Notes: generated from the sequence alone by a model not told the origin. DNA of 64,000 nucleotides from an uncultured Mycoplasmatota bacterium (GCA_900548695.1 URLC01000002.1:197545-261544), one strand, 5' to 3'. Numbered from the stretch's first letter, positions 4,452-13,553 are shown. Numbers and translations: made by a program.

Positions 4452-4481
4452 AAGTACTAAATTTAGTGCTTTATTTTTTTA
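4452..4481 (+). terminator. rho-independent terminator after asnA
   Basis: aaagtact-aaattt-agtgcttt hairpin followed by atttttttt. Confidence 0.6.
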
Positions 4482-4523
4482 TGATATAATTAAGTAGAGG
4501 CTTTTGTGGAAAGAGGGAATTAT

Positions 4524-5222
4524 ATGAAATATGAAGATTGGTTATTTGAAATTTACTATAGTGAAGTAGATGAGAAATATATGGATAAGTTAAGAAATAC
4601 GATTTTGAGTCGAATGCCAGATATACTTCAATTTTTTAAAATTAAATTTGAGAGTAAGATAGTGATTAAATTATATGATGATATAAATAGTTATAAAGAA
4701 AACTTGATGGCATCGTTTGAAAAAAATGCAATAGAAGATAGTAAAAAACATGGTAAGAAAGTAGAAGCTAGAAAGTATGAGGACTTTATGATTGCTAATA
4801 CGGAAGATGGAAATCTTAATATGCAATCTTTAAGTTTAGTTAGAATGCAAGAAGATTATAGAAATTATACCGAAGATGAATTTTGTCTTAATGCTTGTCA
4901 TGAGTTTGCACATTTGTGTCAAATGCAAGTAGGGTCAGAAAATCCTGGGTGGTTTTGGGAAGTCATTGCAAGTACCATTGGAAATCCAGAATGTCAACAT
5001 GAAATAAAAGAAAGTTTTACGTATAAAGATTTAAATGAAAACTTTGATAAGATTGATGGTTATGGTGCTGCTTATACCGTTGGTAAATATTTATTTGCTA
5101 ATTATTCTCAGGACTTTATATTAAATATGATTAAAGATAATGCAGTTTTTAATAAAAATATAGAGGATATAGTAGAAAAATCTCAAAGTACTAAAAATGA
5201 TATGCATGGTAAATGTTATTAA
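4524..5222 (+). CDS. hypothetical protein with HExxH motif (putative zinc metallopeptidase-like)
   Basis: CHEFAHLC motif. An RBS precedes the ATG at 4524. Confidence 0.5.
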   Translation: MKYEDWLFEIYYSEVDEKYMDKLRNTILSRMPDILQFFKIKFESKIVIKLYDDINSYKENLMASFEKNAIEDSKKHGKKVEARKYEDFMIANTEDGNLNMQSLSLVRMQEDYRNYTEDEFCLNACHEFAHLCQMQVGSENPGWFWEVIASTIGNPECQHEIKESFTYKDLNENFDKIDGYGAAYTVGKYLFANYSQDFILNMIKDNAVFNKNIEDIVEKSQSTKNDMHGKCY

Positions 5223-5274
5223 TGTTGAAAATTAAAAGATATTTACTATATGATGGTTAGGAGGCAGAAATAAA

Positions 5275-9738: not shown

Positions 9739-10965
9739 ATGAAGTGGAATGTAGCAGTATATTTAAGAGTTTCTAAAGAAGTAGATGATTTGTGTGAGAC
9801 TAACAGTTTAGATAACCAAAAACTGATAATTGAAAATTTTGTAAATAACAATCGAGATTTAGTTATTAAAGATTATTATATTGATAATGGATATAGTGGC
9901 ACAAATATGGAAAGACCTGCATTAGAGCAAATGATGGATGATATACATAATAAAAAAATAAATTGTGTAATCGTTAAAGATATGTCTCGATTTGCAAGAA
10001 ATTATGCATGATGCCAAATATATTTAGGAGAACGTTTTCCCAGTAATAACGTAAGATTTATTTCTATAAATGATAATTTAGATAGTTTAGAAAATCCTAA
10101 TTATACTGATAAACTGGAATTTGTTTTGCTAAATCTTGTTTATGAACATTATGCTATTGAAGCTTCTGAAAAAGTAACAACAATAAAAAGAATGCAACAA
10201 AAAAATGGAGATTATTTAGGAGTATCAGCCCCATATGGATATATTAAAGATCCAAATGATGGTCATAAAGTTTTAATAGATGATTATGCATCAAAGATAG
10301 TAAAACGAATTTTTGATATGACTTTAGAATGCAAGAGTAGAAATGAAATAGTAGATATATTAAATGATGAATGTGTATTACCACCTTCTAAATATAAAGC
10401 TGAAATTATAAAAGTAACAAGTTTATCCACTAAGATAGCAGAAAAGTGGCAGCCTAACATGATTAGAGAAATATTAAAAAATGAATTCTATATTGGTAAC
10501 ATGGCACAAGGAAAAGTAAGAAAACCTACTAGAAGATTAAATAAACTTGTAAAAGTGTCTAAAGATGATTGGATAGTGGTAGAAAATACACACGAAGCTA
10601 TTATAGATAAAAATGATTTTGAGACAGTTCAAAGAATATTAGAATTTTCTTCCTCAATTTTAAATTCTAGTGAAATGTTGCTAATGTATTTAAAATGTCC
10701 TGATTGCAATGGTATATTTCATAAAAAGAAAACTAAATATAATGAGTACTATTATTGTAATACTTATTATAGAAACAAGGGATGTTCTAAACATTCAGTT
10801 ATAAAATCAGTTTTAGAAGAAATGGTTTTAGAAGATTTAAAAGAAAATATTGATCAAAATATCAAGTATTTAACAAAAGACATACTTAAAAAGTATATAA
10901 AAGATATTTTTATATTTGACAATGGAAAAATAGAAATTGAATACAAAAGTAAGGAGGTGAAATAA
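9739..10965 (+). pseudogene. large serine recombinase inactivated by a single in-frame TGA (10009-10011)
   Basis: N-terminus VAVYLRVSK...SLDNQ...IVKDMSRFARNYA is a resolvase catalytic domain. After the TGA the same frame continues ...GERFPSNNVRFISINDNLDS... and ends with a Cys-rich zinc-ribbon-like part (CPDCNG...YYYCNTY...GCSKH). Confidence 0.8.
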
Positions 10966-11143
10966 TGTCTTGGAATGAAATTTTAACTCAAATTGTAATA
11001 CCATTAATATCAGGATTTATTGGGGGAAGTATTGGGAACGTAGTTATACAAAAATATAGGGATTCAAGAAAATATGTAATGAAGTATAAAGATGTAGAAT
11101 TTAAAGTTGTTGGAGATGTTGTAAATGGAGAAAAAAAGTAAAA
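10965..11143 (+). CDS. small predicted membrane protein (58 aa), overlaps the start of the next gene
   Basis: ATG 6 nt after AAGGAGGTG. Contains the hydrophobic helix ILTQIVIPLISGFIGGSIGNVVI. Confidence 0.35.
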
Positions 11144-13461
11144 AACATTTTTTGTTAAATTTATTTACTAAATTTTCTGTTAAAGGAGATGTTGTAAATG
11201 GTGATAAATATGTTTTTAAAATGCCACCGTCTTTAAAAGAAGATCTCCTAAAAATTATTAATAAAAATGATGAAAACTATTCTGATTTTTATAAAAATTA
11301 TATTTCAAAATTTGACGAATTAGATAATTATGCTTTTTCTTTATTTTATCCTAATTTAATAAAGGAAGAGTTTTCGGTTAAGAGTAAACCATTGATATTA
11401 GGTAAAAAAATTATTAATTGGATTTATGGATTAGAAAAATTTCCTACTAAAGATATTGAAGAATTTTATAAATTAATAAAAGTTGAGTATAAGTTTAGTA
11501 ATGATACAGCTATTGTTAAGCGATGGAATGCTAATATTGCCTATTTTAATAATGATTTAAAAAGAGCTTCTGATAATTATAGCAAGCTATATGATGATTT
11601 AAAAGATGTTGATAGTATACCTAAATGGTATATCGATGATATTTGCATAGATGGAAGAAATATTTTACACCAATATGGAAACACACAAAATACTCATTAT
11701 TATAATAATAAATATCAAGATAAAATATCATCAAATCCTCATAAATTATCTTATCCAGATGTTGATCGTATAAAAATTAATATTTATGAAAATGTATCAA
11801 AACATATATTTAATAATAAAAACAAGGCAAAATATACAATTATTTATGGTGCTGGGCTTGAGGAAATTTTCAAGGAAATACAAAATCTAGTCTATTTAAC
11901 TATTTTTTATGGTTCTATAACTCATTTAAAACTTATTAGGGAATTAATTTCAGATATAATGTATATGTATGCCGAAACATTTGAAGATGAACAATTTTAT
12001 AAACTATCTTTGAAAATGTTATTTATTAGTGGAAAGTACAAAGAATTTAGAAATTTATACAATAAATTAAAACTAAATTATTCTTTTGTAAATTCAGAAG
12101 AATTTATTAAAGATATATTGAATTCAAGGAAATCATTGTTTGGTTTTGAAATAAATAGAAATAGTATTTTTTTGTTTGATATATATGGAAGATATTTAGA
12201 TGATAATGTTTTTACAAAATTAGAAAATGAACTTTTTGAAATAGTAACAATTAACTCTAATTTTCAAATAGATTTAATTAGTAATGCTTTTAAAGCAATA
12301 GCGGCTAATTTAATACGTTCAACTAATATTGGTTCATTGTTGAAAATAATGAAGAAATATTTCTTCAAGTCTTATTCAAGGTTTTATATTGATTTTGGTG
12401 GAATTATAAAAGCGGTAGATGTTAATAATTTATCATCATCTGAATTCTCTAATTTTAAATTTATTATAGATTCGTTGATTAAAGAAAAATCACATTTAAA
12501 TTATGATCTATCAGATCAAATAATTGCTATAAAAAAACGTAACCCCAAAATAACAAAGTATGATGAATTAATAGGAACTAATGGAACTTTAGAAAATTTT
12601 AAATACGAGGCAGAAAAAGATAATAACTATGTCGAAATGGCCAAAAAGGTTATTAAAATTTTTAAGGATGAACATGAAGTAATAGAAAAAAGATGTTCTG
12701 GTGTGTATTACGATAAATTCTCGGAATATAGGCTTGGCAATAAAATATTTCAAAAAGATTTATATAGTAAAACAAGAGAGTTTATTATAAATGATTACTT
12801 ACCTTTGGCGAAAAGTATAATAAAATCTGAGAAAGAAATAATTTATGAAAAGATAAAACATATTAAATATTTAAGTTATTTTTTAATGATAGAAAAAGAT
12901 TCGGAAATCGTAGACGAAGTAATCAAAGATATACATACTGTTGAATTTACAAAATTTAATGATGTTTCTACATTTGGTGGTGTTAAAGATAGAGATATAT
13001 ATGACTTAAAAATAAATATCATTATGTGTGATGTGATTTGTAATAAAATAAAATATAGTGATGGTTTAATTAAATATTTAGAAATAGCTATAAATAGAAA
13101 TGAAAATCTTGAAGAAATAGTTAACTGTATTTTAATATTAAATGATTATTGTATTTTGAATAAAGATGATATTCAAAATTTATATTTATTATTTAAAATT
13201 TGCTATAATGTTAATGATATTGATGTGAGAAATAAAATTGTAGAAATTAGTAATTGTTTTATTGAGACATTTTACCAAGAGGAAGTACTCGAAATTTTAA
13301 ATGAAAGATCAAAATATTTAAGTGAAGATGAATGTATAGGGTATATAAAGTTAATCACAAGTGTTAACGATAAAACAATATTTGATGCTAGTATTGAAAA
13401 CTTAAAAAACAATAGAAACTTTTATATAAAATATATGGTTGATAAATATTTAAAAGATTAA
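11125..13461 (+). CDS. large orphan protein (778 aa), predicted all-alpha, no recognisable domain
   Basis: Uninterrupted ORF in an extremely AT-rich stretch, directly downstream of the recombinase pseudogene. Confidence 0.6.
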   Translation: MEKKSKKHFLLNLFTKFSVKGDVVNGDKYVFKMPPSLKEDLLKIINKNDENYSDFYKNYISKFDELDNYAFSLFYPNLIKEEFSVKSKPLILGKKIINWIYGLEKFPTKDIEEFYKLIKVEYKFSNDTAIVKRWNANIAYFNNDLKRASDNYSKLYDDLKDVDSIPKWYIDDICIDGRNILHQYGNTQNTHYYNNKYQDKISSNPHKLSYPDVDRIKINIYENVSKHIFNNKNKAKYTIIYGAGLEEIFKEIQNLVYLTIFYGSITHLKLIRELISDIMYMYAETFEDEQFYKLSLKMLFISGKYKEFRNLYNKLKLNYSFVNSEEFIKDILNSRKSLFGFEINRNSIFLFDIYGRYLDDNVFTKLENELFEIVTINSNFQIDLISNAFKAIAANLIRSTNIGSLLKIMKKYFFKSYSRFYIDFGGIIKAVDVNNLSSSEFSNFKFIIDSLIKEKSHLNYDLSDQIIAIKKRNPKITKYDELIGTNGTLENFKYEAEKDNNYVEMAKKVIKIFKDEHEVIEKRCSGVYYDKFSEYRLGNKIFQKDLYSKTREFIINDYLPLAKSIIKSEKEIIYEKIKHIKYLSYFLMIEKDSEIVDEVIKDIHTVEFTKFNDVSTFGGVKDRDIYDLKINIIMCDVICNKIKYSDGLIKYLEIAINRNENLEEIVNCILILNDYCILNKDDIQNLYLLFKICYNVNDIDVRNKIVEISNCFIETFYQEEVLEILNERSKYLSEDECIGYIKLITSVNDKTIFDASIENLKNNRNFYIKYMVDKYLKD

Positions 13462-13553
13462 TTAAAACATATTTATTGAAGAGAGTAGGTAAAACTACTT
13501 TTTTTATGATATAATGTTGTATGTTGGAAAACTTTAAAAAAGGAAGTGAAACA

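Follow-up and report, generated by a model that had tools for sequence, protein, structure and literature searches.

What occupies the interval between asnA and rbgA in this 64,000-nucleotide (nt) stretch of an uncultured Mycoplasmatota genome (GCA_900548695.1, URLC01000002.1:197545-261544; hereafter the window), and where are its borders? A first-pass annotation had seen there a single AT-rich accessory island of about 9 kb, bounded by an identical 17-bp repeat. We conclude instead, with a probability of roughly 0.85, that the interval represents, in this species, a hot spot where serine-recombinase cassettes insert, located at the 5' end of rbgA, the essential gene for ribosome biogenesis GTPase A. 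This reading is built on junctions, fossils of displaced gene ends, the swapping of rbgA heads, the horizontal transfer of discrete cassettes and the linkage of the recombinase to rbgA, all of which can be read from the sequences compared here. Positions are counted from the first letter of the window, all features described lie on its plus strand, and L numbers denote the loci used for comparison.

A displaced rbgA head marks the left end of the element

The target gene rbgA (13554-14429; Pfam MMR_HSR1) has in its 5' end an integrated element of 4693 bp (8905-13597), apparently the last arrival in an array, with a fossil rbgA head on its left and the live head on its right. Its true junctions are the TG dinucleotides at 8903-8904 and 13596-13597. 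The element contains the gene for a 159-amino-acid (aa) protein (o159; 9096-9575), a dead serine recombinase gene, a 58-aa open reading frame (ORF; s58, 10965-11141) and the gene for a 778-aa protein (o778; 11125-13461), which s58 overlaps; its right end consists of a hairpin, a promoter with the 17-mer, a ribosome-binding site (RBS) and an rbgA head. Sibling elements are present in L104, L106, L014, L018, L037, L109 and L111, and the same layout is met again in a clade of uncultured gut Bacilli.

The left junction preserves the displaced 5' end of the native rbgA gene (8861-8904; the attL attachment site). Directly 3' of a gene for a protein resembling uracil-DNA glycosylase (UDG), the sequence reads GAGGAAGTGATATAA-ATG-AAC-GAA-AAT-AAA-ACA-AAT-ATC-AAC-TG and then passes into unrelated DNA. 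This fossil comprises an RBS (GAGGAAGTGA), the start codon at 8876, the codons for MNENKTNIN and the TG at 8903-8904. MNENKTNIN followed by WYPGHM is the live rbgA start in L002, L012, L018, L021, L044 and L066, and strain L104 holds the same MNENKTNIN fossil. At the window junction (8876-8906) the reading frame runs ATG...AAC-TGA, so that the nine fossil codons run directly into a stop codon made by the junction; the corresponding frame in L104 continues into the element arm. That arm (the P' arm ATTGATACCGCCATTGCAACC, 8905-8935) was delimited in an alignment of 25 left junctions, and it also forms a promoter-like site, TTGATA-18-TATAAT, that reads into the element (promoter scan, 11/12). The window's left arm lacks 137 bp that L104 has between two P'-like repeats.

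At the right end (13541-13597; attR, which resembles the target site attB), the element carries its own RBS (AGGAAGTGA), the rbgA start codon at 13554 and a replacement head, MENLEKTFPKTSIN, up to the TG at 13596-13597. The same head is found in L106, where it adjoins a recombinase 70% identical to that of the window. The ATG at 13521, which had been proposed as the rbgA start, is an unlikely start codon because it lies only 5 nt past the -10 box. Both the fossil and the live head finish in ...AT(C/T)AAC-TG, and the functional rbgA head is the duplicated sequence and the sole duplication. From the codon for tryptophan in W-Y-P-G-H-M onward, the rbgA body is host DNA. With a dead recombinase (TGG to TGA) and an altered left arm, the element is probably immobile. 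The first-pass annotation was right in suggesting a decaying integrated element beside rbgA whose serine recombinase is dead.

Base composition agrees with this delimitation in part. The G+C content (GC) is 23.2% for 8905-13597, 24.3% for 7249-8904, 27.2% for 4443-7248, 28.7% for 2477-4442 and 29.1% for the rest of the window; all other 4.7-kb windows have at least 24.6%, so the element is the lowest. The AT-rich island of about 9 kb thus stands for 7249-13597, which GC separates from its surroundings, but not for 4443-7248. Codon usage does not discriminate, because GC at third codon positions is uniformly low.

The crossover is confined to a TG dinucleotide

We mapped the window proteins on 85 loci. 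The closest RbgA relatives (80-81% identity) come from metagenome-assembled genomes (MAGs) that are labelled uncultured Bacilli, Tenericutes or Mycoplasmatota and derive from human, rabbit, sheep and goat gut. The ancestral gene order is rplS-lepB-rbgA-rnhB-topA. From the lepB stop codon to the rbgA start there are 15-54 bp in L053, L056 and L063, 0.9-9.3 kb elsewhere and 11 kb in the window, and one to three serine recombinase genes, transcribed in the direction of rbgA, occupy the gap in many species. Of the 80 contigs L001-L080, 24 stop no more than 350 bp 5' of rbgA and 3 stop equally close on its 3' side; this excess is the signature of a site that varies among co-assembled strains.

Strains of the same species that carry other elements share with the window 294-300 of the 300 nt on the 3' side of the TGG at 13596 and only 26-36 of the 80 nt on its 5' side, with the nearest mismatch at position -1 (L123). 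Across 25 fossil-head (attL) junctions from 17 loci, the sequence diverges from rbgA directly after the TG. Because of this mismatch at -1 and the divergence straight after the TG, the exchange is confined to the TG itself; a 2-bp core of this kind is what a serine recombinase should use, and there is no long duplication of the target.

The same point is marked by exchange between and within species. Loci from different species that fall into three groups (L010/L024/L030, L001/L052/L074 and L014/L026/L071) are about 100% identical 5' of rbgA and through its head, and identity drops to about 65-70% at ATCAAC-TGGTATCC, the I-N-W-Y-P of the INWYPGHM block. Within the 90% cluster of RbgA, five heads (MENLEKTFPKTSIN, MENSEKTFPKTSIN, MNNNESCHKTSIN, MDKNNNNEKLTKVGIN and MDMYQKRKMRQEKKNSSKNNGVEKIQLN) sit on a near-identical body and switch exactly before WYPGHM.

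The left arms of the 25 junctions share the consensus nTTGAT(A/T)(C/A)CGATTTAT after the TG, then about 15 nt, then CCTTATAAATAAAGG. Joining the right and left ends of the element gives a reconstructed attP of TATYAAC-TG-nTTGATA, an imperfect inverted repeat around the TG. We take attP as ..GTATTAAC-TG-GTTGATACCGATTTATTGCAACC.. and attB as ..AAATATCAAC-TG-GTATCCAGGTCATATGGC... The right arm of the element encodes ...I-N and so imitates the left arm of the target; for this reason the junction adjacent to rbgA (attR) is again attB-like. A small, conserved inverted repeat, CCTTAT(n3-4)ATAAGG, lies 3' of the left arm at +36 to +52 after the TG (for example at L003:8397-8412 and L106:1836-1851), too distant from the core for a normal serine-integrase half-site.

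The recombinase is a compact serine integrase linked to rbgA

The recombinase gene (9739-10965, 408 codons) is a pseudogene in the window. As had been noticed before, a single in-frame TGA (10009-10011) takes the place of a tryptophan codon in this large serine recombinase, which has the resolvase domain but is cut after residue 90; of a claimed two genes with in-frame stops, however, we found only this one. The L104 strain has TGG at the position (NYAWCQIY) and an intact 403-aa protein that is 94% identical to the window gene, and orthologues in other species are intact as well. We rejected the reading of TGA as tryptophan (genetic code 4): TGA ends 4 of the 49 long ORFs in the window, the other genes are intact under table 11, and the orthologous element in L120 is broken at a different codon. 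There, a dead short recombinase (L120:4614-5816) stands beside a 58-aa and 778-aa gene pair that is 59% identical to that of the window, and a second recombinase downstream (L120:9632-10852) is also broken; therefore, recombinase decay beside retained cargo recurs.

In the L104 protein, Pfam recognizes Resolvase (6.9e-19), Recombinase (PF07508, 3.2e-24) and Zn_ribbon_recom (PF13408, 9.1e-10) domains. The nucleophilic S12 is invariant in 38-41 homologues, four Cys residues are likewise invariant, and the family is 400-412 aa long. We made an AlphaFold2 model of a protein 84% identical to the L104 recombinase (P0001; mean predicted local distance difference test score 80.9), and its best Foldseek matches were complexes of serine integrases with their att sites (E 1e-18; Bxb1, PhiC31). 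Canonical integrases have a long coiled coil in the zinc ribbon domain, which controls the directionality of attP x attB recombination. Past the zinc ribbon, this predicted (not solved) structure has only the helices 357-372 and 381-387 and two strands, and the best-matching solved integrases are 486-596 aa long compared to 400-412 aa here. The nearest named relatives are TndX (35% identity over 96%) and TnpX (catalytic domain, E 1e-19). The NCBIfam Ccr models gave 96.5 bits for CcrB and 64.8 bits for CcrC against cut-offs of 900, so the recombinase is not a Ccr, and a search of phage and plasmid collections for close relatives gave none, all matches being below 60% identity.

Homologues at 70, 56, 51 and 42% identity, picked irrespective of context, all four lie upstream of an rbgA-type GTPase gene on the same strand. 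The linkage holds also where the downstream neighbors are genes for mini-RNase III, SpoU and sigma factors instead of rnhB and topA. We also observed a second class of elements at the same site, with doublets or triplets of 485-550-aa serine recombinase genes directly 5' of rbgA (L025, L038, L062 and L123-L125, including strains of the window's own species).

Cassettes form arrays and differ between strains

Tandem cassettes separated by fossil heads are found in L018 (2), L029 (3), L078 (2), L106, L109, L111 and L120. A cassette of 2.6 kb with genes for a recombinase and a KilA-N protein is 97.5% identical end to end between L014 (7459-10044) and L018 (5860-8442), compared to 67.6% identity between the rbgA bodies of the two hosts. 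In L018 this cassette's own head (MSNEEKNFQKASIN) is now a fossil behind a second, cargo-only cassette. A further cargo-only cassette, with SWIM and Bro-N genes, is common to L018 and L109 at 80% identity.

Within the window's species, blastn against L086 showed that the window is collinear from 1 to 7248 and again from about 13538, with exact identity resuming at ATTAAC-TGG. The intervening segment (7249-13595) is replaced in this variant B by 1156 bp. Variant C (L088:12743-15316) has an extra block with genes for an ASCH protein, a 160-aa protein, a Q_salvage protein and a 211-aa protein, inserted precisely at the RBS that precedes the second HExxH gene (window 5259-5270), and variant C strains lack most of the acetyltransferase gene vat. 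The 160-aa gene is a paralogue of o159 (67% nt identity). Variants B and C have no recognizable recombinase, and L123-L125 have the doublets and triplets of long recombinases. The interval is thus accessory and varies among strains, as the first-pass annotation had held; its extent and borders were misplaced, since the element proper is 8905-13597.

Could such variation be ordinary homologous recombination or deletion among strains, with the recombinase genes as unrelated passengers? The breakpoints at 5270 and 7248 lend the idea some appeal, since those of variant C and the left one between variants A and B fall on RBS and start-codon sequences with no recognizable att sites, and an array flanked by conserved DNA on its lepB and rbgA sides could be swapped wholesale in this manner. 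However, the right breakpoint is the same dinucleotide across strains and across species whose flanks are only about 67% identical, the junctions carry a conserved element arm, and the recombinase homologues are linked to rbgA in all four cases whatever the surrounding synteny. We therefore consider this explanation improbable as a whole. Homologous recombination probably contributes to the exchange of whole arrays without explaining the structure of the junctions.

The 17-mer is a terminator tail fused to a promoter

The first-pass annotation proposed a single island between asnA and rbgA (4474-13515) with the 17-mers as attL and attR. The repeat itself is real: exact copies of TTTTTTTATGATATAAT lie at 4474-4490 and 13499-13515 and a one-mismatch copy at 9700-9716 just 5' of the recombinase gene, and matches with up to two mismatches number 8 in the window against 0.96 expected. 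In 1.06 Mb of related loci, the exact 17-mer was found once, in L011, and there it again forms the rbgA promoter within an element end. Folding placed a stable hairpin directly in front of all three window copies (-10.8, -12.1 and -7.6 kcal/mol), and the T7 tract is for this reason read as a terminator tail. The coding strand of the window has TGATATAAT five times and the opposite strand not at all; of four occurrences of TATGATATAAT, three are preceded by at least four T's. In the 17-mer, a terminator T-tail runs straight into an extended -10 promoter, and the sequence is neither an attachment site nor an island border. The caveat that had accompanied the border proposal, namely that a T-tract plus extended -10 could reflect promoter convergence, was correct, given the hairpins and the strand bias of TGATATAAT.

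Each copy has its place in this arrangement. The first overlaps the asnA terminator hairpin (4448-4475, module 4448-4490; -10.8 kcal/mol, z-score -4.8) and is a T-tail with a TATGATATAAT promoter for the next gene, not a junction; it is kept in all strain variants, and no strain breakpoint lies there. The one-mismatch copy follows a terminator hairpin (module 9681-9716) and is read as the promoter of the recombinase gene. The second exact copy overlaps the element-borne hairpin (13477-13506, module 13477-13515; -12.1 kcal/mol, z-score -6.3) and would serve as the element's outward promoter for rbgA, 82 bp inside its right end. Hairpin-promoter modules of the same type lie 5' of rbgA in L001, L004, L005, L010, L011 (with the exact 17-mer) and L012. 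We base these promoter assignments on position and conservation and not on enrichment in the scan.

The exactness of the two copies and the rarity of the sequence in related loci are what speaks for the single-island proposal. Against it, the strain breakpoints fall at 5270, 7248 and 13595/13596 and never at 4474 or 13499; all variants retain 4474 and the genes rightward of it to 5270 or 7248, and both exact 17-mers lie in DNA that is either shared between strains or internal to the element. All three copies are hairpin T-tails plus TATGATATAAT, and the copy in L011 is again an rbgA promoter. Moreover, serine recombinases exchange strands at a 2-bp core and do not make 17-bp duplications, and the real duplication is the rbgA head. 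We regard a single island bounded by the 17-mers as very unlikely.

Cassettes carry known defense genes and uncharacterized modules

Cassettes range from 0.4 to 6.3 kb, most of them without a recombinase, and their genes include RhuM (as in a cargo-only cassette of L009), KilA-N, Bro-N, SWIM, P-loop kinase, nucleoside phosphorylase, dCMP deaminase and nucleotidyltransferase. In the slot between recombinase and rbgA, L104 encodes a defense reverse transcriptase (DRT) of type RT_UG31 (5e-71), L106 an ATPase resembling AriA, GajA and OLD, and L109 PDC-M43A together with an HATPase protein. The window has s58 and o778 in the same slot. The 778-aa protein had been taken for an orphan and is none: we found 236 homologues (775-782 aa, 49-60% identity), always with a small upstream ORF. 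The pair is a portable two-gene module, which is also present in L120 (beside the dead short recombinase) and in L116-L119. Going by its position, a defense role for the pair is a reasonable guess. The proteins o778, s58 and o159, like the two HExxH proteins described below, had no match in Pfam, PADLOC, PHROGs or NCBIfam.

In L116-L119, the module (58/66 aa plus about 780 aa) stands in a tandem array in which an aminoacyl-tRNA synthetase gene is flanked by tyrosine integrase genes that are duplicated and fragmented. Genes for Fic, DUF3800, UDG-like and APH proteins come next, and the locus resembles a further accretion hot spot, in MAGs of the Clostridia type.

A proposed mechanism that preserves the target gene

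In the mechanism that we propose, small elements with a compact large serine recombinase of about 400 aa would integrate by crossover at the TG of a tryptophan codon, which lies in a nucleotide-conserved block encoding I-N-W-Y-P-G-H-M. The right end of each element would supply a kit: an extended -10 promoter, which in the larger elements follows a terminator hairpin, then an RBS, the start codon and a head of 9-27 codons that finishes in I-N. Because every right end carries this replacement kit, rbgA would stay whole and expressed, and the displaced head would remain as a fossil at the left end of the element. The new junction next to rbgA would again look like the target, so that later arrivals would insert there and push older ones towards lepB; the outcome would be a one-directional array in which many cassettes lack a recombinase of their own. 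We infer that this recombinase catalyzes the events, that cassettes with cargo alone are moved in trans and that the cargo serves defense. By analogy with TndX and TnpX, and from the likeness of attR to attB, integration and excision may both be reactions between an attP-like and an attB-like site with no directionality factor.

A more far-reaching version of this mechanism, to which we give somewhat less than even odds, is an integron-like system not described before. Recombinases of about 400 aa with a much reduced coiled coil would both insert and remove cassettes at the one TG in rbgA with no directionality factor, every internal junction being attP-like and the rbgA-proximal junction attB-like. 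Cargo-only cassettes would be mobilized in trans, the head would be swapped at each event, the array would act as a store of defense genes, and the 58-aa and 778-aa pair would be a new defense module.

The hot-spot reading has several observations to contend with, and these count against it. Variants A and B do not differ simply by the insertion of 8905-13597, and the left breakpoint between them (7248) lies 5 nt into the xre ORF with no recognizable junction. Among 12 cluster members, we did not find an empty site in which udg is directly followed by an rbgA gene with the MNENKTNIN head. A search for older rbgA-head fossils and left-arm motifs in 2477-8860 and in variants B and C gave only false positives; because 2477-8860 has none, the cassette mechanism does not explain the origin of HD142 (an HD-domain gene), asnA, the HExxH genes and vat. 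The dyad symmetry of the reconstructed attP is partial, with 5-9 of 12 inner positions matching in a position-by-position count, so a perfectly palindromic attP was ruled out. Finally, the promoter scan was not enriched over shuffled sequences (104 compared to 96) and was not used as evidence.

That the recombinase is instead a domesticated inversion or deletion switch regulating rbgA, as its constant position upstream of and co-oriented with an essential gene and the promoter modules at the junction might suggest, is scarcely credible, since no promoter is flanked by inverted copies of the site, the cassettes all point the same way, the recombinase is often absent or dead while rbgA is intact, and a near-identical cassette occurs in distant hosts.

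The hot spot explains a recurrent assembly break in MAGs of gut Bacilli, about 30% of whose contigs end just 5' of rbgA. It also means that an essential GTPase of ribosome assembly tolerates the routine swap of its promoter, RBS and N-terminal head. The unusually small serine integrases, with attB and attP readable from the data, are of practical interest for genome engineering, and a cargo slot in which known defense genes (DRT, AriA/GajA-like, PDC-M43A) alternate with uncharacterized ones offers a route to defense-gene discovery in uncultured gut bacteria with reduced genomes.

Other genes of the interval and its surroundings

The ancestral upstream neighbor of rbgA, the signal peptidase I gene lepB (1976-2476; Pfam Peptidase_S26), is followed by HD142 (2512-2940; Pfam HD_4), a T-box leader (2997-3270; Rfam RF00230, 103 bits) and asnA (3474-4442; Pfam AsnA, TIGR00669 346 bits). 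An AT-rich spacer of about 200 nt, which includes 3290-3473, separates the T-box terminator from the asnA start at 3474. Every strain of the species has HD142, the T-box-asnA unit and the first HExxH gene. HD142 and T-box-asnA have normal GC (28.7%) and are absent from the lepB-rbgA gap of other species; they are an insertion relative to the ancestral lepB-rbgA order that is fixed in this species. The start of HD142 (ATGATTAAT, M-I-N) at 2512, 35 bp past lepB, was considered as a displaced rbgA start but found no support: AC and not TG follows, there is no element arm, and the sequence is present in all strains.

Between asnA and the fossil head lie genes for two proteins with HExxH motifs (4506-5222 and 5275-6042), a 51-aa ORF (6134-6289) with homologues in the rbgA-proximal cassettes of L011 and L035, the Vat streptogramin A acetyltransferase gene (6480-7115), a membrane protein gene with an XRE-type helix-turn-helix (7244-7864; Pfam HTH_3), a second 51-aa ORF (7890-8045) with homologues 5' of rbgA in L006, L011, L018, L076 and L078, and the UDG-like gene (8135-8860). 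The HExxH and XRE assignments made earlier agree with the motifs and the Pfam match, and that of Vat with NCBIfam model NF000311 (330.7 bits, equivalog cut-off 300). The UDG-like protein has a Pfam match, but a weak one whose score is under the cut-off (22.5 compared to 24.3 bits). Before the last insertion, the DNA of 7244-8860 would have lain directly upstream of rbgA. The homologues of the 51-aa ORFs at other loci hint that the older left part was built from the same pool of cassettes.

Elsewhere in the window, a second low-GC stretch (47600-51600; 23-25% in 1-kb windows) holds three consecutive ORFs of about 445-455 aa on the plus strand. At 18323-20525, a TGA-terminated gene for a 433-aa protein with no Pfam match overlaps the start of a XerC/D-type tyrosine recombinase gene, and this pair is kept 3' of topA in all strains.

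Comparison with known systems

Our literature search found no description of an rbgA-head cassette system. The 5' end of rbgA is the experimentally verified attB of streptococcal integrative and conjugative elements (ICEs), which use a tyrosine integrase with Xis, have 83/84-bp repeats and move by conjugation (PMC6079316, PMC4701971). The attB of Tn5253 consists of the first 20 nt of rbgA together with the 63 nt preceding them, and integration leaves the gene intact (PMC6079316); some elements of the Tn5252/Tn5253 type replace the sequence 5' of rbgA, including its promoter (PMC4701971). These ICEs thus share both the target gene and the targeted end with the cassettes described here, and tyrosine-integrase ICEs and serine-recombinase cassettes converge on the same handful of conserved codons. 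The ICEs, however, are large and conjugative, with a tyrosine integrase, Xis and 83/84-bp direct repeats, in contrast to the serine recombinase and 2-bp crossover at our locus, where elements of 0.4-6 kb lack transfer genes, bring a new RbgA head and accumulate in arrays. The element encodes a serine recombinase and cargo only, and we found in it none of the ICE features (tyrosine integrase, Xis, long repeats, conjugation). The doublets and triplets of long recombinases in the second element class recall the serine-integrase triplets of streptococcal ICEs.

Staphylococcal cassette chromosome (SCC) arrays combine serine recombinases, a single housekeeping gene, tandem cassettes, defense cargo and mobilization in trans (PMC11470126). 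Like SCC and SCCmec, the system here has large serine recombinases and tandem cassettes between repeated att sites, some of them without a recombinase. SCC elements are 17-68 kb and insert at the 3' end of rlmH (orfX), in contrast to the 5' end of rbgA. Because the target here is a 5' end, no cassette can do without a promoter, an RBS and a start codon of its own. The recombinase is also smaller, at about 400 aa compared to the 542 and 558 positions of the CcrB and CcrC models.

TnpX and TndX are enzymes of 533-707 aa that reside in mobilizable or conjugative transposons, use a GA core and accept looser targets; the ends of their elements and their targets share a dinucleotide and resemble each other. 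In contrast to these systems (Tn4451, Tn5397), there is here one highly specific site in a coding sequence, with a TG core. As reported in the titles of two papers cited by PMC3783163 (its refs 3-4), the TnpX and TndX enzymes alone suffice for insertion and excision.

Tycheposons of Prochlorococcus integrate beside a conserved gene and accrete so that older elements are pushed inward, leaving partial target copies and fragmented integrases, and a minority have large serine recombinases (bioRxiv 10.1101/2020.12.28.424599). In contrast to the elements here, they use the 3' ends of tRNA genes and mostly tyrosine recombinases, and many carry replication genes. Integrons resemble the array in having one insertion point, a single direction, the newest cassette at the fixed site and many cassettes without a recombinase. 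The present system differs from them in that there is no IntI and no folded attC, an essential gene offers its 5' end as the fixed site, and the recombinase rides on some of the cassettes; Pfam found no Phage_integrase domain in the array, and the junctions consist of an rbgA head and a conserved double-stranded arm rather than attC. What is new is the combination: the serine recombinase is compact, the crossover falls among the first codons of an essential gene, every insertion has to deliver an RBS, a start codon and a head (to which the larger elements add a promoter), and the cassettes are very small.

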